The position numbers and the translations under genes are program-made. From Candidatus Woesearchaeota archaeon (GTDB lineage Archaea > Nanobdellota > Nanobdellia > Pacearchaeales > GW2011-AR1): a stretch of 64,000 nt of DNA. Every line of letters begins with the position of its first letter. The first letter of the stretch is position 1. Where the stretch lies: NCBI GenBank assembly GCA_964514585.1, contig CAZETU010000003.1, forward strand, positions 1 through 64,000. Direction: 5' to 3'. Of this stretch, positions 4,997 to 26,614 are shown piece by piece. The notes under the pieces were generated by a model. That model was not told the origin of the DNA and did no database searches. It saw nothing but the letters and a program-made list of their open reading frames with translations.

Positions 4997-7354
4997 TTAG
5001 AATAGTCCGTCTAAAAATTCGAATTCTTTTCCCGAATCCTCATAAATGTAAGTTTCGTTTGAGTTGATTTTCCATATCCCTGAAAATTCCACAATAATTC
5101 CTCCAATAAGAGTTTTATTTTTTTGTATCTTAATCCATCTTTGTAATGCCTCTGCTTTTGCCTTTGTCTCATTAGAGCTTGCGGTATCTCCCTTTTTAGT
5201 ATCCATAATTAAAGTAATTCCACTCTTTAATTTAACAATCCAATCTGGATAAAACAATCTCTCTCTGTGCTTTTCATTGTCAAAATAAGGCACTGCGAAA
5301 TGATCACTGCCTTCATCCCCATTTTTATGCCACCATTCAACGCTTGATTTACCTTCAAGATATTTTATGAATTTTGTTTCATTCACCTTTCCAACATATT
5401 CTTTTTGTAGATAAAATGGTTTCATAGAGCATTTGCTTACATCTTTCTTAATTTCTCCATAATCCTCATTATATTCTAAAATCTCGTTTGGCACCTCTAA
5501 GAAAACAGTCTCTTTAGATCTTGATGCTTTTTTATGTACCTCTTCTTCCCTTATAGATCTATATTCTAACAGGGCATCACTGACAACTTTAACTAACTCC
5601 CCATCTAATTTCAACAGATCCTTAATAATTAACTTATAATAATTATCCCTGCTTTCCTTTGATATCTTTCCAATCCAAACATTTAATGCAGTTTTTAATT
5701 TCCCCCAGGATCTCGCAGGAGCAAATCTCCTGTTCTCATCCTCTTGTTTTGCAAGAATATCGAAGCACCTCATATTATAAATTCTAATTAGATCATTTTT
5801 GGAGGTTTCTTTATTCAAATCTGTTCCATGATTAACCAATTCTTGAACAAAATTATCAAAATCTTCAATTTCTGCATCAATAATCATATTATTTTCAATA
5901 TGTAGCGAGTCAAAGGATAGCCCTTTCTGTTCCAACTTTTTCTTTGCCACATCAGGCGAGTCCCCCTTTTTAATCTCAAAATGTTCATTCGCAGTTTTTT
6001 CAAAAGTATTTTGGAAAGAATCACCAAGATCGTTATAATCAGGCCTACTCATATAAGTAGATTCCAATTTTATAGGTTTAATTCCATCTTTTCTTTTGCT
6101 TGTGTATATAAATGGTTTATTCGTCCCCAATTTACTCCAATTTTCTTTAACTTGATTTCTTTCGTAATTAGTATAAAGGTATGCCTTGTTTAATTCTTGC
6201 TCAGAGTAAAATCTTGCCTCTGGCATTCGTAAAACTCTACCAACTGTTTGAGTATGGAAAACAGGATTTCTTATTTCTCTGAACATTATCAAAACAGAGG
6301 CTCTTGGGCAATCCCATCCCGTTGCGGCCGCTTGCTTGAATATTAAAAAATCTACCTCCGAATTATTATCCTCAATATCCTCCAAATTTTCTTTTGGCCC
6401 TGCCAACCAAATGGCAACTTTGTGGTCCGGAACACTCTTATCTCTCAAATAATTCTTAACCAAATCCATCTTTGTTTGATTTAATGTTTCCTTTGTGGAA
6501 ATATCATCATTCGGCAGTTGGATTAATACAAGAGGATTTATATCAAGATCTAAACCTTTGTATTTTTTTAAAAGCTCTTTTCTTTTATTGTACGCCAAAT
6601 CCAAAAGTAATATGTCCTGATCAATTTCTTTTTTTGTAACATTTTCTAAATCTTCTTTGGTTTGGGTGATTATCTTTTCTTTAATTAACTCTGCCTCAAC
6701 GACGTCCTCACGAGTAACATTAACAAATCCTTTTGTTTTCATTTGTATCTCCAATGCATTTGGAATAACTTTTGGGGTAGCTGTTACCTTAAGAATAATC
6801 TTTGGATCAATTAAATTGATCAACTCATCTGCAAGATCCGTATCGGTATCTCTGTGGGCCTCATCAACAATTAAAATTATTTCTCTACCCTCTTTTTGAG
6901 TTTTCTTAATTAACTCATCAAATTGTCCATCATCTCCATCCGTATGTTCTGTTGGGTTTCTTAATTTTCTACCCTCTTTTGAGGAGGATTTTAATTTTTG
7001 CCAATTTATAAAAAATACATTGTTCTTTTCAAGTTTCTTTTTATTTGCCAAATCTGTTAAATCCAAAAGATTAAGCTCCCCTGCACCGCCATAATAACTC
7101 AAAAGTTTATTCTTGCTCTGTAAGTAAGAGGGCTCATTAAAACTAAACCACAAAAAACACTTATCTGCATCAAATTGAGGATCTCCCGTTAAATCTCTCA
7201 AAAATTGGGCCATCATAATCGTTTTTCCTGATCCAGTTGGGGATTTAAAAATTAACTCTGTTTTTCTGTTGTCCGATTTCCAAAGATTAAGAAATTGATT
7301 CCTTAATCCTGCTATTGCTGTTTCTTGGAATAGTTTTAATTTTATGTTACTCAT
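4997..7354 (-). CDS. res: Type III restriction enzyme Res subunit (SF2 helicase plus nuclease)
   Basis: SPTGSGKT, IVDEAH, ATGWDCPRA, QTVGRVLRMP; C-terminal FYPDWIV...DTK. Confidence 0.9.
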   Translation of the reverse strand: MSNIKLKLFQETAIAGLRNQFLNLWKSDNRKTELIFKSPTGSGKTIMMAQFLRDLTGDPQFDADKCFLWFSFNEPSYLQSKNKLLSYYGGAGELNLLDLTDLANKKKLEKNNVFFINWQKLKSSSKEGRKLRNPTEHTDGDDGQFDELIKKTQKEGREIILIVDEAHRDTDTDLADELINLIDPKIILKVTATPKVIPNALEIQMKTKGFVNVTREDVVEAELIKEKIITQTKEDLENVTKKEIDQDILLLDLAYNKRKELLKKYKGLDLDINPLVLIQLPNDDISTKETLNQTKMDLVKNYLRDKSVPDHKVAIWLAGPKENLEDIEDNNSEVDFLIFKQAAATGWDCPRASVLIMFREIRNPVFHTQTVGRVLRMPEARFYSEQELNKAYLYTNYERNQVKENWSKLGTNKPFIYTSKRKDGIKPIKLESTYMSRPDYNDLGDSFQNTFEKTANEHFEIKKGDSPDVAKKKLEQKGLSFDSLHIENNMIIDAEIEDFDNFVQELVNHGTDLNKETSKNDLIRIYNMRCFDILAKQEDENRRFAPARSWGKLKTALNVWIGKISKESRDNYYKLIIKDLLKLDGELVKVVSDALLEYRSIREEEVHKKASRSKETVFLEVPNEILEYNEDYGEIKKDVSKCSMKPFYLQKEYVGKVNETKFIKYLEGKSSVEWWHKNGDEGSDHFAVPYFDNEKHRERLFYPDWIVKLKSGITLIMDTKKGDTASSNETKAKAEALQRWIKIQKNKTLIGGIIVEFSGIWKINSNETYIYEDSGKEFEFLDGLF

Positions 7355-9066
7355 ATGTTTGCCACCTCTTTGTATACTTCAATTAAGGGTTCGGGAATGT
7401 CTTTAACTTTAATCTTTTTGTATTCTGTAAATTCATTTGCATATTCATTCTTTCCCCAACTAAAGATATAAAGATTTACTTTCTTATCCATCTTATCCAA
7501 CTTTTCAACTAATTTCTGTAATTTACTTTTATCCTCTTTAAAATAAATTGCAGTAACTTCTTTTCCATTTGAAAAAATTTGCCACCAATCATCTTTTTCA
7601 ACTTCCTCAAAGGTTTCCTCTTTTATAGCAATCATCTCTCCTGCTTTGTAAGTTAATTCAATCTTATCTTGATCCGTTGCATTATCAAGATTTTCTGTTT
7701 CAACAAAATCTGTTTTATAGTATCGGAGATTTCCTCCCAAGCCTTTATATTCCCTTTTATCTGAAATGCCACAGTATCCTTTAATAATTTTTTTAATTCT
7801 TGGATAACAAATGTCTTCCGCAATTCCACCTCCATCCCCATTATTATTTTCATTATTTGTGCACAAAATAAATCTTCTCTTACCTTTATCTGATTTATTT
7901 AACTCCATGGTTGCATGTCCAGTAGTCCCAGATCCTGCAAAAAAATCTAAAATTATTGCCTTATTTTTATTATGAATAACTGCCTTTATACAATCCCTTA
8001 CCGCATATAATGATTTTGGATAAGGGAAGTTCCCAGAAATTATATTATTTAGAAGTTTTGTGCCGTATACGTTAGCATTATATTCATTTTCAGTCCATAC
8101 CGTTTTCCACCTATAATCTTGCTTTTCTCTGAAGATTGATATTTCTCCCCCTATTTCCTTGGGTAATAATTCGTCCTTAATTGATTCTACACTTCCTCTA
8201 GAAAATCTCCATTTTCTTTCTACCCCATTTTTATCTAGAGGGTATACTTCTATCATTTCATCTTCTCTCTTAATATTAGAATTTTTTGGATGAAAGTTTT
8301 CTTGACATGTATCCCCAAAACCAATAATCTCCCCAGATTTTACATAAATGGGATAAAAGCAAGTTTTTGCAGACGTTCTTTTTGAAGATTCTTTTCCCCA
8401 GTCTCTAAATGCTCTTTGTGGTGCATCTTCTTTTTTTACCTTTGATATAAATGTTCCCGGTCTTGGGTGTATAAAATATGCATATTCGTTAACATGTGAG
8501 AAATTTAATCCTTGAATCCCTCCAGGGTTATGAACAATTGTTACACAGACTATTTCTCTTTCGGGAAAAAGTTCTTGAAGTAGTACTCCTAGTGTGGAGA
8601 CTTCGTTCTTATCAATAGTACATATAAGAACACCATCTTTTTTGAGTAAGTTTCTCGCAAGTTTTAGTCTCTTTTCCATAAAAGAAAGCCATTTACTATG
8701 TCTCCAATTGTCATTTATGTCTACATAATCATTATTATACTTCCAATCTCTTGCCCCAGTATTATATGGCGGATCAATGTAAATAACATCAACTTTCCCC
8801 TTATGAGTATAATTCAAAACAGAAAGCGAGTGATAATTGTCTCCCTCAATTAAAAGATTAACAGGCTCATCCCCCTTTCCTTTAATCTCTTTTTTCTTAT
8901 CCTCAACTAATATTGGCAATTTTTTTCTACAATCCAAAACAACTTTTTCCGGTTCTTTTTCGGCATCCCAAACCAAACCATATTTTTTCCTGGCCTTTAA
9001 TTTTTCAACCTGTGCTCTCAAATTCTCAACTTCTTGCAATAATTCTTTTTCTGTTTTCTTTTCCAT
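7351..9066 (-). CDS. mod: Type III R-M Mod subunit, adenine DNA methyltransferase
   Basis: YIDPPYNTG, YPKS, LDFFAGSGTTG, FILCTNNE; 4-nt overlap with res. Confidence 0.92.
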   Translation of the reverse strand: MEKKTEKELLQEVENLRAQVEKLKARKKYGLVWDAEKEPEKVVLDCRKKLPILVEDKKKEIKGKGDEPVNLLIEGDNYHSLSVLNYTHKGKVDVIYIDPPYNTGARDWKYNNDYVDINDNWRHSKWLSFMEKRLKLARNLLKKDGVLICTIDKNEVSTLGVLLQELFPEREIVCVTIVHNPGGIQGLNFSHVNEYAYFIHPRPGTFISKVKKEDAPQRAFRDWGKESSKRTSAKTCFYPIYVKSGEIIGFGDTCQENFHPKNSNIKREDEMIEVYPLDKNGVERKWRFSRGSVESIKDELLPKEIGGEISIFREKQDYRWKTVWTENEYNANVYGTKLLNNIISGNFPYPKSLYAVRDCIKAVIHNKNKAIILDFFAGSGTTGHATMELNKSDKGKRRFILCTNNENNNGDGGGIAEDICYPRIKKIIKGYCGISDKREYKGLGGNLRYYKTDFVETENLDNATDQDKIELTYKAGEMIAIKEETFEEVEKDDWWQIFSNGKEVTAIYFKEDKSKLQKLVEKLDKMDKKVNLYIFSWGKNEYANEFTEYKKIKVKDIPEPLIEVYKEVANI

Positions 9067-9096
9067 AAATATTTTTATCTAAGGACCCTTTTATAT

Positions 9097-10275
9097 TTAC
9101 TCTTCCTCAACATCCTTCCTTTTACTCAAACTAAGCCTAAAATCCTTAACCACCTCACACATACTCCTAACGTCCTCATCAATTTCCCCCTTAATTACCC
9201 CACTATTAATTTTAGGATAACAAATCATAGAATAAGCCTCATACAATCCCTTATCTCTCAATAATTTCACAAAAACCTCTTTATCTTCAGGCATTAAACA
9301 TTTTTCAAACTCTTTAATTGAGCATTTTCGATTAGAACCACAAACAACATCAATTCCAAATTGTTTTGAATAATTAATTAAATCTTCTTTCAATTTATCT
9401 TCTGCCTCATTCAACTCAGTTAATTTAGTTTTAATTTCAGAATACTCGTCAACCAATTTAACCCCTGAATCTTCCTTGAATTTCTTAACATCTTTTTTCT
9501 CAAGTTCAACCTCATGTTTGAAGCTCGGACACATTTCCTTGTAAACACAATAATTACAAAGTCCACTCTGCTTCCTAGGAAACTCCGTCACCACCTCAAT
9601 TTCCGCAATCTTTCTACAAACATCTTCCTGTAATTTTTCTAACTGTTCATCACTTCGCTCAGATACTGCCTCTTTGTTAAATGCCAACATGTGCCAAATT
9701 AACTTAACCGATTTCGCATCCTTAAATTTATCTTTAACCCAAATGGAATAAAGAGCCAGTTGTCTGTCGGCATCTGCTTCTTCTTGATCTTTCATTCGTG
9801 CATTTGTTTTATAATCGCAGACGTAATAATTTCCTTCATCGTCACAAGCCAATTTATCAATTCTAACGTGCCATTGATTTCCATCGGGCAAAGTCATCCT
9901 ATCCTGAGTCTCAAGCCCTAAAATCGTCAACTGGTCAAAGGGCTTATATTTATTATAATAATCCTCGATGAATTTTATACCCATCTTTTTATAATTCTCG
10001 GAAGTCAATCCCTGATCCGCTTTTGCCACCAAAATATCTTCAGAATACTCCTTCGCCCACAAATCCTTATAGAATTTAAGCAACGTGGCCTTAGAAACGA
10101 CTTTCTTGAACTTTTTATCTTTGTATAGCTTCTCTAAGGTTTGATGCACCAAATCGCCCATAAAAGCCTCAATCGTAGTCGGAACATCAACCTTAATCTT
10201 GTCGATATAACGCAGTTTATACTGATAGGGACAGTTCTCAAAACATGAAACCCTTGAATGCGAATATGTTGCCAT
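9097..10275 (-). CDS. PD-(D/E)XK nuclease, Cas4/RecB/AddB-like with Fe-S cysteines
   Basis: YSHSRVSCFENCPYQY; RID...DYKT; QLALY; CNYCVYKEMC. Confidence 0.85.
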   Translation of the reverse strand: MATYSHSRVSCFENCPYQYKLRYIDKIKVDVPTTIEAFMGDLVHQTLEKLYKDKKFKKVVSKATLLKFYKDLWAKEYSEDILVAKADQGLTSENYKKMGIKFIEDYYNKYKPFDQLTILGLETQDRMTLPDGNQWHVRIDKLACDDEGNYYVCDYKTNARMKDQEEADADRQLALYSIWVKDKFKDAKSVKLIWHMLAFNKEAVSERSDEQLEKLQEDVCRKIAEIEVVTEFPRKQSGLCNYCVYKEMCPSFKHEVELEKKDVKKFKEDSGVKLVDEYSEIKTKLTELNEAEDKLKEDLINYSKQFGIDVVCGSNRKCSIKEFEKCLMPEDKEVFVKLLRDKGLYEAYSMICYPKINSGVIKGEIDEDVRSMCEVVKDFRLSLSKRKDVEEE

Positions 10276-10276
10276 A

Positions 10277-11020
10277 TTATTTTATTTTATTCTCCATTTT
10301 ATCTTTTTTTGGCAATTCGTTGTATTCTTTTAAACCCTCTTTAAAATAATCCCAATAACTTTCTCTAGGGCATTTAGGGTAAGAATTGTTACTATAATGT
10401 ATCAGGGGGATTATATACTTCCCTTCTTGTATCTTAAACAAGTGTCCATGTTCTTTCACTATTCCGCCAACATCACCCCGATTAGTTTTAGATGCAACTC
10501 TTACTATATTTTTTTTATGTTTCTCTTTAAAAAAATCCCAAGAAATACCGCCAAAACAGATAATTAATTTTGGATTAACGAAATTCAACTCATCTTCAAA
10601 TATTTCTTCAAATATTTCTTTATCTTCTTCAGTTAACTTCTTAATGTTCCCTCTTTTCTTAATAATATCTGTGTAGAATATATTTTTTTCTTTGAAAAAC
10701 TCTAAAGGATTAATTTTTAAATTGAGACTCTGATTTAATGTATTGAAAAATTTCTCCCAAAATTTTTTCATCTTCCCTTTATTAAAATAATGTATTAGAA
10801 CTCCCTGATAAATTTCTACAAGTTTTTCTGGATTATCGGTCGAATCAATATCTCCCCGCTCATTTTTCCCAAAGCCCCCCGGATTCTGTCCCACAATCAT
10901 TCTGCCCTTATGTTTAAGATTAAAATTATAAAAGGCATAATTTTCTTTATTTGCCTTATTTTCTTTATCTCTTCCCTTGAGAATCTCTTTCAATATCTTA
11001 CGATAATTTTCTGAACCCAT
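10277..11020 (-). CDS. Uracil-DNA glycosylase-like superfamily protein
   Basis: IVGQNPG (motif A), YTDIIK, PKLIICFG, LIHYS (motif B). Confidence 0.7.
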   Translation of the reverse strand: MGSENYRKILKEILKGRDKENKANKENYAFYNFNLKHKGRMIVGQNPGGFGKNERGDIDSTDNPEKLVEIYQGVLIHYFNKGKMKKFWEKFFNTLNQSLNLKINPLEFFKEKNIFYTDIIKKRGNIKKLTEEDKEIFEEIFEDELNFVNPKLIICFGGISWDFFKEKHKKNIVRVASKTNRGDVGGIVKEHGHLFKIQEGKYIIPLIHYSNNSYPKCPRESYWDYFKEGLKEYNELPKKDKMENKIK

Positions 11021-11082: not shown

Positions 11083-12003
11083 CTAATCTCCTTTTTTCTC
11101 ATTAATCTTGAGGGCAATTATCAAATTTCCGATTGATGACATCTCCTTTAAAATATCTAGAAAATAATGGCTTATCGCCGGATTTTTATCCCGGAGGACT
11201 TCCAGAACCTCATCAAATAAATCTTCTCGTTCTTCAAAGAATTCTCTGGTCTTTTCAATGCTGAGGTTTTTGTATGCGAGAAGCATTTTATAATAAAAAT
11301 CGGAAGTGTCCTTTATCAACTGAGATTCTCTTTCGCTTAGTTCAATCTTATTTGTCTTAGAAATATATTCATAGCTAAAGAGAATGAAGGAGGAGATGTT
11401 TAGAAGACCGGTTAGGAACCAATAGACGTATTTTGAAATCGTTGAATCATATAAGGGTTTTTTATTAATCATTCTTCGGCATAAATTATTGAGTTTTAGA
11501 ACCGTCATATGAATCTCTGCTACTTCTTTTTCCATAGAAGGTTTCCCCTTTCTGCAGTCTTCTTGGAAATATTCAAATTGAGAATGGATCAACCAAAATA
11601 TTCTATCGACTAATTGTGTGTAATCCGAATCATCCGAAGAGATTACACATTTCAGCAAGCAATATTCGGGTTTACTCTCGACGATCTCCATCCCAGTTAG
11701 TTTAGTAATTGCCTTACGAATCAACCTTAACTGTTCTGAATTACGATAGTTCACCTTAATTTCATCATAACCTGATGTGTATAAATGCCTTAAAATTCGA
11801 GTAATATACCATTCCTCTTTTCCAGTGAGGGTCGTTTCAACTTCTTCAAAGTGTCTCTCATAAGATGAAGAAATTATAATGCGTTCCTTCGCTACTTCCA
11901 GATTCAAAGAATCGCCATTTTCGATTTTATTAGCCTTTGCCCACTTAGAAGGTAGGGAGATTGTAAGTGTGCTCGCCCCGTGTTTTACAACTTTCCTTTC
12001 CAT
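11083..12003 (-). CDS. AbrB-domain / PhoU-like transcriptional regulator
   Basis: MERKVVKHGASTLTISLPSKW (AbrB/SpoVT), LYTSGYDEI, helical PhoU-like C-terminus; ATG at 12003 (track TTG 12015). Confidence 0.8.
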   Translation of the reverse strand: MERKVVKHGASTLTISLPSKWAKANKIENGDSLNLEVAKERIIISSSYERHFEEVETTLTGKEEWYITRILRHLYTSGYDEIKVNYRNSEQLRLIRKAITKLTGMEIVESKPEYCLLKCVISSDDSDYTQLVDRIFWLIHSQFEYFQEDCRKGKPSMEKEVAEIHMTVLKLNNLCRRMINKKPLYDSTISKYVYWFLTGLLNISSFILFSYEYISKTNKIELSERESQLIKDTSDFYYKMLLAYKNLSIEKTREFFEEREDLFDEVLEVLRDKNPAISHYFLDILKEMSSIGNLIIALKINEKKGD

Positions 12004-12044
12004 TCTAAAGAGCAATTTGAAAAGTATATAAATTTAACTAAAAT

Positions 12045-12067
12045 ACACATAATCTTAAAATATGTGT
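12045..12067. promoter_or_regulatory. Palindromic operator candidate between divergent promoters
   Basis: ACACATA-N9-TATGTGT between TATA-like boxes at about 12025-12032 (- strand) and 12084-12095 (+ strand). Confidence 0.4.
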
Positions 12068-12112
12068 TTATAACCTCCAAAAGTATATATAAAAACGTGA
12101 TTTAGATAGGTT

Positions 12113-12463
12113 ATGGAAACAAAAAAGCCCGTAATCAACCACGTGGTCGCCGAATTATTCAATGTAGGCGAAAATATGCTGTTTGATTATGCCTCTTTAG
12201 AAAAGTCCGTGGAAAAATTAGTATCAAGCCTCAACTTAAAAGTTGTTAAGAAAGATAAATACGATTTTAGTCCTCAGGGAACAACAGCCTTTTTTATTCT
12301 TTCAAGCTCACATCTGGCAGTACATACATGGCCGGAGAATAATTATCTCCACTTAGATCTTGTAACTTGCCAGGCCCTTCCCAGTACAACCGAATTGAAG
12401 AAGATTTTATCTGAAATATTCAAAACGAAAGAAATAGAGGTGAGGGAGATCCTATATGACTAA
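12113..12463 (+). CDS. speD: S-adenosylmethionine decarboxylase proenzyme (class 1B-like)
   Basis: FSPQGTT, LSSSHLAVHTWPE, DLVTC. Confidence 0.85.
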   Translation: METKKPVINHVVAELFNVGENMLFDYASLEKSVEKLVSSLNLKVVKKDKYDFSPQGTTAFFILSSSHLAVHTWPENNYLHLDLVTCQALPSTTELKKILSEIFKTKEIEVREILYD

Positions 12464-13565
12464 TGTTAACTATGATAAGATCATCGAAAATGAATTTGAA
12501 AGGGATTTTTACAAAGAGACACATAACAAAATACTCGAATATCTCAAAAGAAATAAGGTCACAACTTTTTGGGAAATTGTGAGGAATATTCAAGGAAGCG
12601 ATAGGAGGGTGTTAAGACTGCTTAACCAGATGAGTTTAGCAGGCGAAATTGCCTTAGAAGGAGTTCAAATCTCCGCATCTGGCTTCAATGCCGATGAGCC
12701 TAGCAAGGGGGTTAAAGTCCCTGCGGACGGATTCAATACCACCGTTAAGCCCCCCTATCTCTCTTTTAGTCTAAGCAATGAGTATAGCAAAATCCTCGCA
12801 AAGATGGAATCAATAGCAAAGACAAAACCAGTTCCAACTTTCTTTTATGACCAAAGACCTGTAACATTAACAACTTCTGTTAAAAGAGTCGCTTATTTAG
12901 ATTACAAAGGAGATCTTCATGACAAGCGGATTGCGATTATCGGAGATGATGACTTGACTTCTCTTGCAATTGGGCTTACAGAAAAGGCAAAAGAAATAGT
13001 TGTTTTCGATATTGATGAAAGACTTATTGAATTTATCAACACTATTTCAAAAAAGCGAGGACTAAAAATTAAAGCATACAAGTACGATTTAACGAAGAAA
13101 ATCCCAAAAGAGTTCTCTGGAAAATTTGATGTTTTTCTAACTGACCCAACGCCGAATAAAATTGCGTTTGAATTGTTTATTTCTACTGGATTAAATCTTT
13201 TGGCAGAGAAAGGTGTTGGATATGTTTCATTTTTCCCATCGCATCAATCAATTAGCCTTGACTTTCAGAAGGTATTAACCGATAGAAAAGTAATCATCAC
13301 AGATATGATTCCTCAATTCACTGAATACGATTTTATTCCCCAAACTTATAGAAAGGAAGACTTCACTCTTTTGGAATCGTTTGATTCTGGAGAAGAAAAA
13401 CTCTCTTTTTATGAAAACAATACAAGGTTTGAAGTTGGGGCAGAATCTGTAAGAAAAATAAAATCGTTAACTGACGAGGAAAGGGCAGACCTTATTGGCA
13501 AGGCCACTAAGAGAGTCTTGGAAAATCCTACTCTAGACCCTGCATATCAGAAAAAATCAAAATGA
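12456..13565 (+). CDS. bpsA: BpsA-family (branched-chain polyamine) aminopropyltransferase
   Basis: YDQRPVT...KR, IGDDDLTSLA, DIDERLIEFI, YDL, FDVFLTDP; 8-nt overlap with speD. Confidence 0.8.
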   Translation: MTNVNYDKIIENEFERDFYKETHNKILEYLKRNKVTTFWEIVRNIQGSDRRVLRLLNQMSLAGEIALEGVQISASGFNADEPSKGVKVPADGFNTTVKPPYLSFSLSNEYSKILAKMESIAKTKPVPTFFYDQRPVTLTTSVKRVAYLDYKGDLHDKRIAIIGDDDLTSLAIGLTEKAKEIVVFDIDERLIEFINTISKKRGLKIKAYKYDLTKKIPKEFSGKFDVFLTDPTPNKIAFELFISTGLNLLAEKGVGYVSFFPSHQSISLDFQKVLTDRKVIITDMIPQFTEYDFIPQTYRKEDFTLLESFDSGEEKLSFYENNTRFEVGAESVRKIKSLTDEERADLIGKATKRVLENPTLDPAYQKKSK

Positions 13566-14221
13566 GCTTTAACAATTACTACAAAAGTGAAATAGCAAGA
13601 TATGGTGGAAGCCAGAAATATGTATTAGCAAAGGCTAGAGAGAAAAAGCCTCTTTTAGACAGAGTGATTAAGTTCTCAGGAAATGGAAAAATTCTGGAAG
13701 CCGGCTCGGGAAGTTCGGCTAATTCTATTTTTTTGTCTGACGAAGGTTTTGATGTTACTGCTGTCGATAATGACTCTGAGATGATTTCTTTGGCAAGAGA
13801 ATTATCAAGACCCTTCAATAAAAAATCTAAATTCCTCAAACAGAAAATAGAAAACTGCAACGGAAAGTACTCTGTCGTTTTTAGCCACGGAGTTTTAGAG
13901 CATTTTGAAGATAAAGAAATTATTAATCTAATAAAAAAAGAACTAGGGCTGGGGGATTATGTCGTTTTCTCTGTGCCTTCAAACTTTTTTAGGAAAGATC
14001 AGGCAATCAATGGCGACGAGAGATTTATGTCAGTTAAAAAATGGAGAGACATTATCTCAATGTCTGGTGCAGAGATTTTAGAAGAGTTTTCTTATTTTTA
14101 TGATCCAGATAGTTTCAAACTTAGAGTCTTAAAATTTATATTTAATGCAACAGGAGGCATATTTCCGATTAAGAAACCTTACATCGGATTTGTGATAAGA
14201 AAAAATGTTCACTCTGCTTAA
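13562..14221 (+). CDS. Class I SAM-dependent methyltransferase
   Basis: ILEAGSGSS, VTAVDND, FSHGVLEHF. Confidence 0.85.
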   Translation: MSFNNYYKSEIARYGGSQKYVLAKAREKKPLLDRVIKFSGNGKILEAGSGSSANSIFLSDEGFDVTAVDNDSEMISLARELSRPFNKKSKFLKQKIENCNGKYSVVFSHGVLEHFEDKEIINLIKKELGLGDYVVFSVPSNFFRKDQAINGDERFMSVKKWRDIISMSGAEILEEFSYFYDPDSFKLRVLKFIFNATGGIFPIKKPYIGFVIRKNVHSA

Positions 14222-14828
14222 ACCTGAAATGAAGAGATGTGTTGATTCTCTTGATCCTTATTTAGCTAAAGCAGGATTTAAGATTGATTCGCGTCATCCC
14301 ATTAAAGACTGGGAGGAAACTGCAAGGCAATTGTATGCAAAACAGATGACCGATCCTAAATTTGCATCAGAGTTTAATGTATATTTATGGATGACAAAAA
14401 ATCTCTTTGGAAATCATGCTGTTGCTTATCAAGTCTCAAGAGATGCGAGTGTTGAACAGAACCTTTATGATTTAATGGGACTCAAAGGAAGGTTTAGAAA
14501 TGACGTCTCTGAAAGATTAGATGGTCCGTTGAATATGATGGTTAACCTAGAGAAAATCACGACTCATCAACCAATAGAACTCGGGAAGAAAGGAATAATT
14601 CATATTGGAGATAGCCCCTTGCAGGACGGCCATTTCGACGGAAGGTGGGACTATTTTTTCTTTAAATATATTCATACTTCGGATAATCTCGAGACCCATG
14701 AAAGAGAAGAGAATGTCCTAAGGGCTGGGGGAGTCTATGACTCAAGAATTTCAGGTAAACAATGGAGACAAATGATTGCCACAGGAACTTTAACTCCATT
14801 GAATGGGGAGGTCTACAAAAATGGATGA
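14205..14828 (+). CDS. Divergent nucleoside-diphosphate-kinase-like protein
   Basis: N-terminal TLLKPE and C-terminal YIHTSDNLETHERE match the NDK IKPD and IHGSD..S..RE motifs; middle region divergent. Confidence 0.6.
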   Translation: MFTLLKPEMKRCVDSLDPYLAKAGFKIDSRHPIKDWEETARQLYAKQMTDPKFASEFNVYLWMTKNLFGNHAVAYQVSRDASVEQNLYDLMGLKGRFRNDVSERLDGPLNMMVNLEKITTHQPIELGKKGIIHIGDSPLQDGHFDGRWDYFFFKYIHTSDNLETHEREENVLRAGGVYDSRISGKQWRQMIATGTLTPLNGEVYKNG

Positions 14829-15732
14829 GAAAATTTCCGGAGTAAGGTTCATTGTAACTTCTGCCTGTAACTTCAACTGTATTTATTGTCACAACGAGTG
14901 GGAGGAAAAAGAAAGACCGACCACTGGAGTTGAGAAGGAACTAATAAGGTCGATAATATTCTCCGCAAAAAAGCTCGGTGCTTCTGAAGTAGACATAACT
15001 GGCGGAGAGCCATTGCTTGAGATGGAAAGAGTCAAGGAAATTCTTCTAGCATCAAAAGATGAAAACCTATGGACAAATATGACCACAAATGGATTTTATT
15101 TGGAAGAAAATTTGGAGGACCTAAAGGACTGGGGCTTAAACGAGATTCATATCCACATCCCAAGCCTAAACCCTGAAAAATACAAAGAGATAATGAGGGG
15201 AAACTCTGATCTTAATCGTGTCTTGAGTGCCGTAAAATCTGCGGTCAAGATGTTGGATAAGGTAATGATAAACATTCCAATTGAAAAAGGAATTAATGAT
15301 AAAGAAATTCCAGGCTTTATTGAATACTTCGGAAACATTGGAGCAGTCCCTAGATTCATCGAATCCATGTCGACTAAGAATTACGTGCCATTAAACAAAG
15401 AAACAATCGAGAAAATGGTCCGGGACAGATTTGGTGATATTGAGAAAGAAGGAGAATACCTGTGGGGGATTAGTAAGTATTCTGCGGGAAAATATAAGTT
15501 TGAAACACTTAGATGCATCTGTTTTGATAGGAAGTGTGACATCTGCCATAAAACAAATTTCATCCACATCGATAAGGATTACAAAATCCGGCCTTGCAAC
15601 CTTAGGAAAGACAAGTTTGAAATAACAAAAGATAATTCCGAGGAAGTTTTGATTAAAGCATACAACTTCTTGAAGAAACAGAGCAAGGTTCCGGAAGAAT
15701 ATGATAAATTGTGGGGGGGACAGCTTTTATAA
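14821..15732 (+). CDS. MoaA-like radical SAM enzyme, probably not true MoaA
   Basis: CNFNCIYCHNE, TGGEPLL, TTNG, PRFIE, C-terminal CDIC...RPC; probable ATG at 14821 (track 14803). Confidence 0.85.
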   Translation: MDEKISGVRFIVTSACNFNCIYCHNEWEEKERPTTGVEKELIRSIIFSAKKLGASEVDITGGEPLLEMERVKEILLASKDENLWTNMTTNGFYLEENLEDLKDWGLNEIHIHIPSLNPEKYKEIMRGNSDLNRVLSAVKSAVKMLDKVMINIPIEKGINDKEIPGFIEYFGNIGAVPRFIESMSTKNYVPLNKETIEKMVRDRFGDIEKEGEYLWGISKYSAGKYKFETLRCICFDRKCDICHKTNFIHIDKDYKIRPCNLRKDKFEITKDNSEEVLIKAYNFLKKQSKVPEEYDKLWGGQLL

Positions 15733-15754
15733 ATCTAAAAGCTCTTGAAAAATT

Positions 15755-16384
15755 ATGGAAAAACAAATTGAGGTAGAGTTTATCGGATCGGTATCTAAGG
15801 ATCAATTCTCTGAGTTAAAAGATAAGTTCGAGAAGGAAGGAACTTTCAAGAAAAGAAAAGAAAGAATCTCTTTTATGTATTTTAGAGATAAGATTCCAAA
15901 AGACTTATCTGAAATAAAAGACGAGGACACAGACTTAAGATTAAGAATTACAAACAAAGAACCTGAGTTAATTGTTAAAAAAGGCTCATTTACCGGATCT
16001 CACTCTAGAAAAGAGATTTCTATACCTTTTTCAATGGAGTCCATGCAGAAATATATAGACTTTCTGTCATCTCTGGATTGGAATATTGGAGTCATTTATG
16101 CAGTCGAAACTTTTGTTTATGAATATAAGGGTATTGAGTTCTCATTAGTTGATATTGAAGATTATGGATACAATTTTGAAGCAGAGATTTTAACAACATC
16201 AGAAGACGAGCCAGAAGCAAGGAAAAAGATTAACTCAATTCTCGAAGAGTTGGAATTAAAGCCATTTGACGAAGAGGGGCTAAACGATCAATGTAATGCT
16301 ATTAATAATCGAAAAGGATTAAGATTTGATTTTTCAAAACAAACGGTTGGAGAAATTAAAGAAAAATTTCCAAAATTTTTCTAA
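15755..16384 (+). CDS. CYTH-domain protein (triphosphatase / class IV adenylate cyclase fold)
   Basis: IEVEF (ExE), LRLR, ELIVK, RKEI, FEAEI. Confidence 0.8.
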   Translation: MEKQIEVEFIGSVSKDQFSELKDKFEKEGTFKKRKERISFMYFRDKIPKDLSEIKDEDTDLRLRITNKEPELIVKKGSFTGSHSRKEISIPFSMESMQKYIDFLSSLDWNIGVIYAVETFVYEYKGIEFSLVDIEDYGYNFEAEILTTSEDEPEARKKINSILEELELKPFDEEGLNDQCNAINNRKGLRFDFSKQTVGEIKEKFPKFF

Positions 16385-16776: not shown

Positions 16777-18069
16777 CTACTTCACAGTAAATTCTCTCAT
16801 ATACTCAAAACCTTCTTTACCAAATTCACAATTATAATCTCGGTTATATTCATCAATTCTATCTTGATATATTGGAACTTCAGGATAAAGCATCCCCCAA
16901 GAACTACTAACATACCATTCTAATTCTTTGTCATGAAGACTTATATTTAATCTATATCTTGTTGGATAGTTACCAGCGTTATATACTTTCCATGTGCAGT
17001 TTACATAACATCTATCTTGGTTTTGTTTACATTCAAAGTCAGAAAATTTTAAATCATATCTTGGTAATTCTTCTATAATTTCACATACGTTATCGACACA
17101 TCCTGCTTGAGCAAAACATGATTGAGAAGTTACATTCTCCTCACATTCATAATTGCTACAATTTGTCTCCTTTAATCTTACACATTCCAAAAAATCAATA
17201 TGTTTTTTATTGATAGCATTATCACTTCCCCCATTGCAAGAATCACAACAAGAAACTCTATTTATAACTTTAATACAATCAGAATCTTTCTCGCAATATT
17301 GTAAACCCGGTATTCCATTTTTTGGAAAAATTCCTCTTGAAGGACAATTATCCGATGGGGGTCTGTTAAGACTAACTGTAAGACTGTATATAAAAGATCC
17401 AAAAAAGATCAAAAGAATTATTGAGATCACAATCCAAACTTTATAGTTTTTCTTCTTTGAACCTCTCCTCCTTGCTGGTGAGGCTATTCTTAGAAAGAAA
17501 TACATAAAGGCTATAGCAATTATTGTTATAATCCCATTAGTTAATGTAAGTGGTGTTCCCCCGAGTGTATAACGTAAAATAGCGGCGATAATCATAAAAA
17601 CAATTAAATAACAAATCCAGAATTTTTTTGCTTTTTCTTTGGAGACTATTTCTCCTAATTTTTCTTCTTTCTTAATAATAAGTGAAAATTCTTTTTGCGA
17701 TTTGTAGGCATAATATACGAGGAGAAATCCAAAAATCCATGCTCCAGAAAGTGCCACTATTGCCCATAAAGGAATTGGAGCTCCTTGGCTTATATCAGAT
17801 ACTGTGCCATAAGAGGCCAAGATTGCTATAAAAAGAAGCATGCCTCCGAAAACATAACCAAGGGGAGCCCACTCATAACTTTCTTCTAAATCCCAATATT
17901 TATATTTTTTTCCAAAGACAAATAGTCTTAATAGGGTAAAGGTTAAGGCCAGAACGATAAATGCAATCCCCAAAATATTATTCCTTTTGGAGTATAGATA
18001 AAATAGGGGAACAAGTATAGATAAGATAGCTATCCTAAAAACAATATTAAATTTTCTTATAGCTTTCAT
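16777..18069 (-). CDS. Polytopic membrane protein with Cys-rich C-terminal domain
   Basis: About 7 TM helices, then CEKDSDC...CCDSC...AIN...C domain. Confidence 0.7.
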   Translation of the reverse strand: MKAIRKFNIVFRIAILSILVPLFYLYSKRNNILGIAFIVLALTFTLLRLFVFGKKYKYWDLEESYEWAPLGYVFGGMLLFIAILASYGTVSDISQGAPIPLWAIVALSGAWIFGFLLVYYAYKSQKEFSLIIKKEEKLGEIVSKEKAKKFWICYLIVFMIIAAILRYTLGGTPLTLTNGIITIIAIAFMYFFLRIASPARRRGSKKKNYKVWIVISIILLIFFGSFIYSLTVSLNRPPSDNCPSRGIFPKNGIPGLQYCEKDSDCIKVINRVSCCDSCNGGSDNAINKKHIDFLECVRLKETNCSNYECEENVTSQSCFAQAGCVDNVCEIIEELPRYDLKFSDFECKQNQDRCYVNCTWKVYNAGNYPTRYRLNISLHDKELEWYVSSSWGMLYPEVPIYQDRIDEYNRDYNCEFGKEGFEYMREFTVK

Positions 18070-18272: not shown

Positions 18273-18389
18273 TACGAAATGATGTTCGGAAGAACTGAGG
18301 CTGAAATGGTCGAAGCTATTAAAAAAATTATCAAGGATAAGACGTTGATGCCTGTGCTGATGTTTTTATATAAGGATAAGAAGGATTAA
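18273..18389 (+). pseudogene. C-terminal fragment paralogous to the 16416-16697 protein
   Basis: YEMMFGRTEAEMVEAIKKIIKDKTLMPVLMFLYKD versus YEIIYHRDPKEFEKAIKEMIKEGKKNVMPLLLWIYKE; in-frame stop upstream at 18225. Confidence 0.6.
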
Positions 18390-18847
18390 GAAAAGCCACC
18401 ACCATTCATAATCATAGCAATAATAAACAGAATGATGGTAATTATTGCAATTCCAATAATAATTAATGCATAAACCATAAAAGAGATATAAAAGATAAAT
18501 GTAATCAATCTATAATTATTGACTAATCTTATGAGACTTTTATCCCGAGTGTTTAGAATATCCTTATAGTAATATATCTTATTAAAATGTCTATTGAATC
18601 CACTTATCGAATAGAATCCCCTGAAATAATAAATTCCCAAACTTAAACGATCCCAGATTATATGCCTAATAAATTTAGAACCACGCAAATTTTTAAATCT
18701 TGAAAGAATTCGTTCTTTAATATCTGAATACTTTCTTAACTTTATCTTTACTCTCTGAAACTGAAACATCAATAGAATCGTGCTAGCCACGAGTATAATA
18801 AATAAGAATAAAAGAAAATTACTAATTACATCTATTAATATCTCCAT
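18386..18847 (-). CDS. Two-TM membrane protein, hypothetical
   Basis: Hydrophobic N- and C-termini; ATG at 18847 (track 18862). Confidence 0.55.
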   Translation of the reverse strand: MEILIDVISNFLLFLFIILVASTILLMFQFQRVKIKLRKYSDIKERILSRFKNLRGSKFIRHIIWDRLSLGIYYFRGFYSISGFNRHFNKIYYYKDILNTRDKSLIRLVNNYRLITFIFYISFMVYALIIIGIAIITIILFIIAMIMNGGGFS

Positions 18848-19059
18848 AATAATTGTGCACAAGCACGGTTTATTATTCTTGCGGTTTGTTTGAGATTAGT
18901 CTAGGTACTTAACCAATACAAAAACTATATAAACTCAAACAGCCTCGGTAAAACATAACACTAAATAAATATTCAATAACAAAAAATATACCTATTGAAT
19001 ATGCCAAAAGGGTGGTTTCTCGGCAGGGGATTTCTATTCTGAATCAGCGTCGAACTATT

Positions 19060-25371: not shown

Positions 25372-26553
25372 TTATATGGTGAAGTGGTTTTCTAGGAAAG
25401 TGGTTGCGTATACGCCTGATGGGAGTGTGAATGATAGGGTGATTTTTTTTGAGTTTTCGAATTCTTCATCGTTGTCTATTGATGTTTCTATGCTTTTTAC
25501 TTCAGTGATTGCTTTTCTGAAAGAGCCTTTGATTCTTAGGTATGGGATTTCTCGGATGTCGAAATCGGATAGTTCTAGATTGTGTTCGGAGAGGACTTGT
25601 TTTTCGATGTCGCCTAGGTGGCCGTTGAAGAATCTTGTTTTGTATCCCATTAGGAGGCAGCTCTGTTGACCTTCTTTGGTAAAATCCATTCCTTCGTCTA
25701 GTGCTCTTTCTAGGATTTCGTTAAACATTTTGCTCTGGACTGAGTGGAGAAACATTAGCATATTTTTTCGTTCGGCTTTTTTGATTGCTCCTAGGAAGTC
25801 GTCTTTATTTCTAGATAGGTAGAACAAGATTTGTTTTTCGAGCTTGAGATAGTTTGGGAAATATTTTGATGCTGCGTTGAAGTCGTTTGTTTTCTTTAGT
25901 TTTTCTCTTGCGTATTTTATGTCGGGACGTTCGTTTTCGTTGGTGTCGGTTAGGATTGCCATAACAGCACTTTCAAATTTTCTTTTTATGATTAGTTCTC
26001 CGATTTTTACATTATTGCCTCGCATTGAGCCGAACCTTTGGGCGCCGAAATAATTTGGGAACCAGTTTTTCTTTTTGATTTGATTTGTGATTTTCATTGC
26101 GTCTTTTTTATCAATGTCTCGCAAGGTTATTGTGAAATGATTTGCTTCTAAATATCCCATTTTGATTTTTCTTTTTGACCATTTGAAATTTTTTAGGATG
26201 ATGTTTGGGTGTTTGAAATTTTTTATTTTGTCTATATCTGGTTTGAATATTGATATTCGTTGGCATGTCCAAGCTTTTTTGTCTTTTGTCCCGGCGTAAC
26301 CAATAGCATCGACGCCTTTATTCAATTTACTTGCTACATCTTTTATTGCTTGAAAGTGGTCTATATTTTTCTTTTCCATTTCGCAGCAAAGGAAGTCTCT
26401 TGGGTTTTCTAGGTCTAATTTTTCTAGGTCTGGATTGGAGTTGAATTTTGGATCTTCTGAGATTTTGCAGTTCCATTTTTCGCCGATTTCTTCGACTATG
26501 AAATCCTCTGCGTTGTGTTTTAATTTTGCTGGGGCTTTGATTTCTTCTTTCAT
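25372..26553 (-). CDS. truD: tRNA pseudouridine synthase TruD
   Basis: EDFIVEEI, GYAGTKDKKAWTCQ, NYFGAQRFG, FTLPSGVYAT; ATG at 26553 (track 26598). Confidence 0.95.
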   Translation of the reverse strand: MKEEIKAPAKLKHNAEDFIVEEIGEKWNCKISEDPKFNSNPDLEKLDLENPRDFLCCEMEKKNIDHFQAIKDVASKLNKGVDAIGYAGTKDKKAWTCQRISIFKPDIDKIKNFKHPNIILKNFKWSKRKIKMGYLEANHFTITLRDIDKKDAMKITNQIKKKNWFPNYFGAQRFGSMRGNNVKIGELIIKRKFESAVMAILTDTNENERPDIKYAREKLKKTNDFNAASKYFPNYLKLEKQILFYLSRNKDDFLGAIKKAERKNMLMFLHSVQSKMFNEILERALDEGMDFTKEGQQSCLLMGYKTRFFNGHLGDIEKQVLSEHNLELSDFDIREIPYLRIKGSFRKAITEVKSIETSIDNDEEFENSKKITLSFTLPSGVYATTFLENHFTI

Positions 26554-26614
26554 GAAATTATAGAGAGGAGGGGTATAAAAGTGTATCATTGAGAACAATA
26601 ATTTTTAAAAACGG

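Follow-up and report, generated by a model that had tools for sequence, protein, structure and literature searches.

A conserved gene cluster joining SAM decarboxylase and a BpsA-like aminopropyltransferase to nucleotide-type enzymes in DPANN archaea and CPR bacteria

The MoaA and viperin families of radical S-adenosylmethionine (SAM) enzymes both work on nucleoside triphosphates (NTPs). Microcin C is a nucleotide antibiotic that receives its aminopropyl group from MccD and MccE, by transfer of a 3-amino-3-carboxypropyl group from SAM followed by pyridoxal phosphate-dependent decarboxylation, and puromycin biosynthesis uses a pyrophosphatase to detoxify an intermediate at the NTP level. The clusters for the C-nucleosides pseudouridimycin and malayamycin combine a TruD-like synthase, a nucleoside kinase, an aminotransferase, a radical SAM enzyme and a methyltransferase (PMC8724604). 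Here we describe a gene cluster of a Candidatus Woesearchaeota archaeon, located in a stretch of 64,000 bp (contig CAZETU010000003.1 of assembly GCA_964514585.1, positions 1 to 64,000; called the window below). The source genome is that of a low-GC DPANN archaeon (~1.04 Mb, 89.65% complete), whose relatives are labelled Pacearchaeota or Nanoarchaeota. The cluster encodes a SAM decarboxylase (SAMDC, g1), a BpsA-like aminopropyltransferase using decarboxylated SAM (dcSAM) (g2), a methyltransferase (g3), a protein with the fold of nucleoside diphosphate kinases (NDKs) (g4), a radical SAM enzyme (g5) and a CYTH-like protein (g6), and lies divergent to a regulatory gene. In the literature searched, no paper on this gene combination was found.

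We give about an even chance to the reading that the cluster is a single mobile accessory pathway for an aminopropylated and, in most archaeal versions, methylated nucleotide-derived molecule with a role in conflict. DPANN archaea and candidate phyla radiation (CPR) bacteria have very small genomes and are believed to produce very few metabolites themselves. That such organisms keep a regulated operon of seven to nine genes and pass it between domains argues for a product of strong selective value.

Conservation and organization of the gene cluster

An earlier note on this DNA, made from the sequence alone, had described six co-directional genes transcribed away from an AbrB-PhoU regulator. 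The six open reading frames (ORFs) were found on the plus strand (Table 1), with successive overlaps of 8, 4 and 17 nt from g1 to g4, a further overlap of 26 nt if g5 starts with the ATG at 14803 or of 8 nt if it starts with the ATG at 14821, and a gap of 22 nt between g5 and g6. A seventh small conserved gene (g7) had been overlooked. Pfam and NCBIfam identified g1, g2, g3 and g5, and g4 and g6 were without a family match.

The same order, i.e., the regulator on the opposite strand followed by the genes for SAMDC, BpsA, methyltransferase, g4, radical SAM enzyme, CYTH and g7, was found in 14 metagenome loci, six GTDB contigs and the window. The gene arrangement is not due to chance, as it recurs in about 20 independent Nanoarchaeota/Pacearchaeota contigs. 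The BpsA gene adjoins g4 in 17 of the 17 loci with sufficient upstream DNA, and the radical SAM gene is present in all 21 loci whose contig reaches that far (that of locus L012 ends inside a PfkB gene); these counts come from short metagenome contigs, and related loci are non-independent samples. A search with a degenerate DNA pattern based on the motif of g4 revealed bacterial loci in two genomes, a complete one from Woesebacteria (CPR) and a metagenome-assembled genome (MAG) of 600 kb labelled Gammaproteobacteria. Their order is SAMDC, radical SAM enzyme, BpsA (42% identical to g2) and g4-like protein, with genes for CYTH-like and GreA/Rnk-like proteins convergent to them. The locus of the MAG (L083; G456:C21, CAZSGY010000021.1, 'uncultured Gammaproteobacteria') has the layout of the Woesebacteria locus, and the radical SAM proteins of the two share 52% identity; either a mistaken taxonomic label or a transfer of the cluster may account for this. 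A third arrangement, in L019, consists of a PP-loop-SAMDC fusion, BpsA, a radical SAM enzyme, a g4-like protein and Ham1, which replaces CYTH.

Gene fusions were found between SAMDC and BpsA (P0240), between BpsA and the methyltransferase (P0200, corresponding to L003) and between g4 and a methyltransferase (P0060), in which the methyltransferase half shares 36% identity with g3 (E 4e-46). Short fusions join g4 to the radical SAM enzyme or to a P-loop kinase. BpsA fusions of more than 647 aa were not found, and the fusion proteins P0173 and P0161 had no match in genome contigs, viral contigs or phage records. With respect to distribution, g4 was found in three genomes out of 61 relatives. Among 401 genomes sampled from the source phylum, a strong g4 match (E <1e-59) occurred only in the source genome and one other genome, and six further matches were weak (E 1e-6 to 1e-8) and probably stem from canonical NDKs. 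Among 401 genomes sampled from the Woesebacteria phylum, the cluster was found in the centre genome only. The earlier note had named a lack of co-occurrence elsewhere as a result that would speak against a joint function; the same set was found wherever contigs were long enough, in two domains, and it is tied together by fusions. The cluster is one unit which is accessory, rare and mobile.

The regulator ORF extends over 11083-12015 on the minus strand, and its true start is probably the ATG at 12003, which aligns with the starts in other loci. The divergent orientation and the AbrB part of the earlier description held, as PF04014 (AbrB/SpoVT) matches residues 15-49; the PhoU part is a lead from atlas neighbours, which carry PhoU and MazE_antitoxin (score 0.94). 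Orthologs of the regulator (58-92% identity) were found solely beside the cluster, other genomes having paralogs of 21-33% identity. A core gene situated at an insertion hot spot was ruled out, since the orthologs occur only with the cluster. The source genome holds at least three more AbrB/PhoU-like paralogs of 23-30% identity (G000:C1:314107-314874, G000:C4:20311-21207 and G000:C6:20475-21443), one of which has an in-frame TAA.

The 109-bp control region between the regulator and g1 is near-identical in five loci (the window, L004, L006, L010 and L016), the proteins of which are 42-80% identical. It contains two AAAGTATATA boxes, resembling a B recognition element followed by a TATA box, at 12020-12033 and 12079-12095. 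Between these boxes lies a 7-bp inverted repeat, ACACATA (12045-12051) and TATGTGT (12061-12067), spaced by 9 bp. Judging from the sequence, the repeat is probably the candidate operator between two divergent leaderless promoters, and the AbrB/PhoU-like regulator might govern both of them via this repeat.

Table 1. Features of the cluster in the window.
Feature	Position	Strand	Basis
Regulator, AbrB/SpoVT-type N-terminus and PhoU-like remainder, cluster-specific	11083..12003	-	PF04014, atlas, orthologs
Divergent control region, probable operator	12004..12112	.	direct sequence reading; function inferred
g1, class 1b (SpeH-type) pyruvoyl S-adenosylmethionine decarboxylase proenzyme	12113..12463	+	PF02675, TIGR03330
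g2, BpsA-like dcSAM-dependent aminopropyltransferase, distinct subfamily, winged-helix-like N-terminus	12456..13565	+	PF01861
g3, class I SAM-dependent methyltransferase	13562..14221	+	Methyltransf_23/25/31
g4, new NDK-fold family, probable phospho-histidine enzyme	14205..14828	+	AlphaFold2 model, Foldseek, VIA-align 2
g5, radical SAM enzyme, MoaA-like scaffold, probable auxiliary Fe-S cluster	14803..15732	+	PF04055; start may be ATG 14821
g6, CYTH-like (triphosphate tunnel) protein, probable (nucleoside) triphosphate hydrolase	15755..16384	+	profile, atlas neighbours
g7, small conserved protein, ~93 aa	16416..16697	+	homologs after the CYTH gene in four loci

Properties of the encoded proteins

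The g1 protein scored 86.8 bits with PF02675 (cut-off 25) and 85.2 bits with TIGR03330, above the cut-off of 75.65. PMC10407285 names Ser63, His68 and Cys83 as processing and catalytic residues of the T. maritima enzyme, describes one proline as separating true SAMDCs from arginine decarboxylase derivatives, and reports that SpeD homologs of genomes without SpeE are frequently neofunctionalized. The equivalent residues of g1, Ser66, His71 and Cys86, are invariant in ten cluster copies, as are Pro54 and Pro74, both candidates for the discriminating proline. In nine of these ten copies the residue preceding the serine is Ser, Asn or Ala, and it is Glu in both aligned solved SAMDCs. The model score and the invariant key residues bear out the SAMDC identity proposed for the first gene, and in agreement with the earlier remark that no polyamine backbone genes were visible, the SpeE and pyruvoyl arginine decarboxylase families were not found in the 89.65%-complete source genome. 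Since SpeD homologs are often neofunctionalized where SpeE is missing, the SAM specificity of g1 is likely but not certain. This specificity is favoured by the linkage and the fusion (P0240) to BpsA.

The g2 protein matched PF01861 (BpsA_C) with 189 bits, covering only positions 2-184 of the 243 profile positions, and the Tk-BpsA structure 5xnc with 108 bits. In Tk-BpsA, Asp225, Glu259, Tyr290 and Tyr316 activate the acceptor amine and an acidic cluster at the C-terminus carries the aminopropyl group (PMC12979288). Retained in g2 are the GDDD motif (residues 163-166), the aspartate of the TDPTP motif (at 229) and the equivalent of Tyr290 (in TEY); Tyr316 was not aligned. The position of Glu259 is changed, with His263 in g2 and His, Ala or Cys among the cluster copies, and the acidic C-terminal tail is not conserved, a DEE motif being found in the window and L004 only. 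The cluster copies form a subfamily of ~59 clusters at 90% identity, which shares FTEYDF and a basic C-terminal KATKRVLxDPSKDP motif and is named 'bis-aminopropyl spermidine synthase family protein' or 'predicted methyltransferase' in databases. Thus, the BpsA assignment stands with respect to PF01861 and GDDD and has to be narrowed to a separate subfamily in which the Glu259 position and the acidic tail are not kept; the idea of an acceptor other than spermidine gains some support from these two changes.

Solo SAMDC-BpsA pairs were found in related DPANN genomes (G040, G047 and G041). Their BpsA proteins are ~35% identical to g2 and lack the motifs of its subfamily. In G040, two tandem full-length BpsA_C genes adjoin a SAMDC gene (L086:7610-10077, G040:C1) and probably form a plain polyamine module with it; branched polyamines are not reported from this lineage. 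In G041, genes for SAMDC, a short BpsA-like protein (227 aa) and Ham1 are consecutive (L088:135-1806, G041:C40) and g4, radical SAM and CYTH genes are missing. Besides L019, this is the second association of a BpsA-type enzyme with a non-canonical NTP pyrophosphatase.

The g3 protein matched Methyltransf_23, Methyltransf_25 and Methyltransf_31. The gene is present in most archaeal copies of the cluster and is missing from L013, L014, L019, L083 and L084, so the methyltransferase of the earlier set is confirmed as a class I enzyme by Pfam and is not universal among the loci.

For g4, neither Pfam nor NCBIfam gave a match, including PF00334. An AlphaFold2 model reached a pLDDT of 74.6 with a 20-sequence alignment (37 from the single sequence). 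Its top matches in Foldseek were all NDKs, and VIA-align 2 gave Z values of 11.9-12.0 to four NDKs and a radial-spoke chain (NDK 2b8p: Z 12.0, rmsd 2.2, 112 residues), with unrelated folds starting at Z 6.7. By these comparisons the fold guessed for the fourth gene in the earlier note is confirmed. An alignment of 67 sequences showed Arg98 and His157 to be invariant and Lys6, Pro7, Tyr44 and Lys94 to be nearly so. His157 lies in the context K-Y-I-H-T-S-D...E-R-E (K-Y-x-H-x-x-D in the family), which we take to resemble the active-site motif of NDKs; its equivalence to the NDK histidine was derived from the motif, not from the structural alignment. The hhalign probability between g4 and the source genome's own NDK was 3%, and two canonical NDKs are encoded elsewhere in this genome. 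In a whole-library profile search, the family comprised 159 representative clusters; databases name g4 a 'hypothetical protein'. Viral contigs gave no match to the family alignment A3. Based on the model, g4 represents a new NDK-fold family and is probably a phospho-histidine enzyme.

The g5 protein scored 99.9 bits with PF04055. The best NCBIfam model was a MoaA model with 148.3 bits against a cut-off of 231, and other MoaA models also remained below their cut-offs (144 versus 325 and 131 versus 284). The match to the MoaA structure 1tv7 (68-99 bits) was confined to the N-terminal 230 residues. Cys22, Cys26 and Cys29 of the CX3CX2C motif are invariant, as are Cys238, Cys240, Cys245, Cys248 and Cys265 in the C-terminal part, and the latter five fit a probable auxiliary Fe-S cluster. 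Hallmarks of MoaA are Arg17, Arg266 and Arg268 of the GTP site and a C-terminal GG motif (PMC12625886). In g5, Arg17 corresponds to the invariant Arg15. The positions expected for Arg266 and Arg268, as counted from the CxxC motif, hold K/E/R/N and an invariant Asn, respectively, with the register inferred because HMMER does not align the C-terminal part; GG is not conserved at the C-terminus. Moreover, a search of the 89.65%-complete source genome gave no MoaC (PF01967). A true MoaA for molybdenum cofactor synthesis was rejected because of the scores below cut-off, the failure to find MoaC and the apparent lack of hallmarks. By its sequence, g5 is predicted not to be a GTP 3',8-cyclase and to resemble MoaA in its scaffold only.

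With the viperin model viperin_w_prok (NF038283, cut-off 180), g5 reached 68.8 bits over residues 14-155 only, and the radical SAM enzymes of L019 and L083 reached 102.5 and 94.4 bits, respectively, over their full length. Of the earlier label 'MoaA-like', the scaffold holds; the defining features of MoaA appear to be missing, and the bacterial version has a viperin-like radical SAM enzyme.

No Pfam match was obtained for g6 at an E-value of 0.01. Among archaeal CYTH structures, its family profile matched 1yem (E 0.0056) and 2dc4 (E 0.021), and CYTH clusters made up 26 of its 30 atlas neighbours (0.96). CYTH proteins, or triphosphate tunnel metalloenzymes (PF01928), have an N-terminal ExExK motif. 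In g6, Glu6-x-Glu8 is invariant and Ile10 stands at the position of the lysine; further invariant charged residues, in alternating positions, are K33, K35, R37, R62, R64, E142 and E144. The CYTH guess of the earlier note holds by profile and atlas matches, less firmly than that of the NDK fold. Homologs of g7 follow the CYTH gene in L006, L008, L016 and L017, and no family match was obtained for this protein.

Genomic neighbourhood and proposed pathway

Restriction-modification (R-M) or mobility genes flank the cluster in four of the five archaeal loci with long flanks. They encode a ResIII helicase, an N6_N4 DNA methylase, a PD-(D/E)XK nuclease and a protein resembling uracil-DNA glycosylase (UDG) in the window, type I HsdR and a Cas4/DUF2779 protein in L006, a phage-type integrase and Eco57I-type and N6_N4 methylases in L016, and a DDE transposase and an N6_N4 methylase in L017. 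L085 and the bacterial loci had no R-M or mobility neighbours. Since the source genome has just two intact N6_N4 methylases in 1 Mb, the adjacency to R-M genes is not expected by chance. With PADLOC and PHROGs, no match to a whole system was obtained. In the window, the flanking genes are located at 4997-11020 on the minus strand, upstream of the regulator (ResIII helicase, 785 aa; N6_N4 methylase, 571 aa; PD-(D/E)XK/Cas4-like nuclease, 392 aa; UDG-superfamily protein, 247 aa), and have the appearance of a defence or type III-like R-M block, which is not conserved beside the cluster elsewhere. Among these genes, the UDG-like and PD-(D/E)XK ones were ruled out as members of the cluster, as they are not conserved in the other loci.

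Several loci contain additional genes. A PfkB kinase gene lies between g4 and the radical SAM gene in three loci, a class I/II aminotransferase gene is present in L085, and variant loci encode a TilS/TtuA-like PP-loop domain. In L010 and L016, the first gene of the operon encodes a TruD paralog and overlaps the SAMDC gene by 4 nt. It is not a neighbouring housekeeping gene, since the two paralogs are 42% identical to each other and 28% identical to the TruD of the window (25372-26598, minus strand), which is the only one of the genome and lies 9 kb from the cluster. GreA/GreB- or Rnk-like genes (Rnk, 'regulator of nucleoside diphosphate kinase') were found beside the cluster in four loci (L010:6692-7243, L013:674-1153, L083:10352-10846 and L084:10164-10664, the last two on the minus strand), two of which are of the archaeal type. 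To our knowledge, archaea do not normally use Gre factors. These genes possibly indicate a link to the secondary channel of RNA polymerase or to the NDK-fold enzyme. In the window, two further ORFs follow on the minus strand: one of 430 aa at 16777-18069, which is convergent to the operon and had no Pfam, NCBIfam, PADLOC or PHROGs match, and one of 158 aa at 18386-18862, which had no Pfam match. Both are without a counterpart beside the cluster in the other loci.

In the proposed pathway, the NDK-fold protein g4 would raise a nucleoside or nucleotide to the triphosphate, with a PfkB or P-loop kinase added in some relatives, and the MoaA/viperin-type enzyme g5 would alter the nucleotide. The g1 enzyme would supply dcSAM, g2 would use it to aminopropylate the intermediate at an amine, and g3 would methylate, an N-methylation being predicted for most archaeal versions. 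Finally, the CYTH-like g6, or Ham1 in one variant, might strip off the triphosphate, either as a step of the pathway or to keep the analogue from the producer's polymerases. We favour an aminopropylated nucleotide as product because of the synteny, the fusions, the NTP-using radical SAM families, the nucleoside-directed accessory genes, the divergence of the g2 subfamily, the R-M and mobility flanks, the rarity and the dedicated regulator. A role in conflict, either antiviral or directed against a host or competitor, is suggested by the neighbourhood, the mobility and the rarity.

Some observations weigh against this proposal. S. aureus MoaA Lys69, Arg71 and Lys163, which we presume from structure 2FB3 to be triphosphate ligands, align with Glu, Asp and Met of g5, and such acidic and hydrophobic residues argue against a classical NTP site. 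An alignment of the g5-type and the viperin-like radical SAM families with hhalign covered the common core only (94 columns), so the two types may not catalyze the same reaction. PADLOC yielded only partial matches to prokaryotic viperins (pVips). The suggestion of a defence role is drawn from the neighbourhood, and the bacterial loci lie outside obvious defence islands. In addition, the existence of the solo SAMDC-BpsA pairs, which have no g4, radical SAM or CYTH genes beside them, indicates that the polyamine half can work alone.

These pairs are also a reason to consider that the operon could comprise two separate modules. In one, imported spermidine would be turned into a branched or methylated polyamine by SAMDC and BpsA, the methyltransferase taking part or not; in the other, the NDK-like, radical SAM and CYTH proteins would perform unrelated nucleotide chemistry. 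The retention of most BpsA catalytic motifs in g2 is in line with this, and overlapping genes are weak evidence of linkage in the compact DPANN genomes. We nevertheless regard this as improbable, since NDK-like-methyltransferase and BpsA-methyltransferase fusions bridge the two halves, the bacterial version has the radical SAM gene between those for SAMDC and BpsA, the halves co-occur in every locus with sufficient upstream DNA in two domains, and the BpsA of the cluster belongs to another subfamily than the solo copies. Also doubtful is a modification of nucleic acids in place of a free metabolite, in which a modified (deoxy)nucleoside triphosphate would be built into DNA to act as a self-mark next to the adjoining R-M systems, or a tRNA or rRNA base would be aminopropylated and methylated. 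The R-M genes at four loci, the TruD paralog and TilS/TtuA-like PP-loop domain of the variants and the winged-helix-like N-terminus and DPP-type amino-methyltransferase motif of g2 would fit such a modification, and sets of a kinase and an NTP pyrophosphatase are typical of the pool-level base replacement of phages. However, a transglycosylase, polymerase or glycosylase is not among the cluster's own genes, the upstream genes for the UDG-like and PD-(D/E)XK proteins are not conserved in other loci, and PfkB, NDK-like, CYTH and Ham1 proteins act on free nucleotides. Furthermore, Tk-BpsA, which has the same N-terminal domain as g2, acts on small amines (PMC12979288).

A housekeeping salvage of SAM by-products or nucleotides without any special product appears very improbable. 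Four of the enzymes consume SAM or dcSAM, and CYTH enzymes are able to hydrolyze inorganic triphosphate; the accessory, rare and mobile nature of the cluster, its dedicated regulator and the two canonical NDKs already present in the source genome all speak against salvage.

Comparison with described systems

The individual components belong to known superfamilies; what is new is their combination, the NDK-fold family, the BpsA subfamily and the distribution over DPANN and CPR organisms. The analysis defines the NDK-fold family and a BpsA subfamily that are hidden under current annotation names. Tentatively, this might be the first pathway to have a viperin/MoaA-type radical SAM enzyme make a nucleotide and a dcSAM-dependent aminopropyltransferase decorate it, with an NDK-fold protein as activating kinase. 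It would yield a new class of polyamine-tagged nucleotide analogues, which ultra-small episymbionts would exchange across domains and direct against viruses, hosts or competitors. Should an aminopropylated nucleotide analogue prove to be the product, viperin-type antiviral chemistry would be extended, dcSAM and BpsA-type enzymes would gain a role beyond polyamine synthesis, and a new scaffold for polymerase inhibitors would be at hand.

Among the described systems, microcin C provides a precedent for an aminopropylated nucleotide antibiotic, reached by another enzyme family and route; the cluster described here lacks peptide-adenylate machinery. The C-nucleoside antibiotic clusters resemble it in combining a TruD-like protein, a kinase, an aminotransferase, a radical SAM enzyme and a methyltransferase. 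However, the C-nucleoside and aminonucleoside clusters are actinobacterial and have neither dcSAM/aminopropyl chemistry nor an NDK-fold enzyme or CYTH, and the TruD paralog, PfkB and aminotransferase are optional in our cluster and not part of its core.

The SpeD/BpsA pathway for branched polyamines in thermophiles (EC 2.5.1.128) likewise has SAMDC beside or fused to a PF01861 enzyme, and GDDD, the TDP aspartate and the Tyr290 equivalent are common to both. In contrast to this pathway, g2 has a changed Glu259 position and a basic C-terminal motif in place of the acidic aminopropyl-carrier tail, no genes for spermidine synthesis were found in the genome, and the cluster-type gene is always joined to genes for nucleotide enzymes. 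MoaA is the best-scoring family for g5 and shares with it the CX3CX2C motif, a probable C-terminal auxiliary cluster and the Arg17 equivalent, whereas the scores below cut-off, the variable residue and Asn at the positions expected for Arg266 and Arg268, the lack of a conserved GG motif and the failure to find MoaC set g5 apart.

The pVips also have a radical SAM enzyme of the MoaA/viperin branch beside a dedicated nucleotide kinase, in accessory loci with patchy distribution and R-M or mobility neighbours. A paper tying SAMDC, an aminopropyltransferase, a methyltransferase or a triphosphatase to viperins was not found in the literature searched. The radical SAM enzymes of the cluster differ from pVips in scoring far below the cut-off of the viperin model, those of its archaeal version carry MoaA-like auxiliary cysteines, and the kinase belongs to a new NDK-fold family. 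To the pairing of radical SAM enzyme and kinase, the cluster adds SAMDC, an aminopropyltransferase, a methyltransferase and a triphosphatase.

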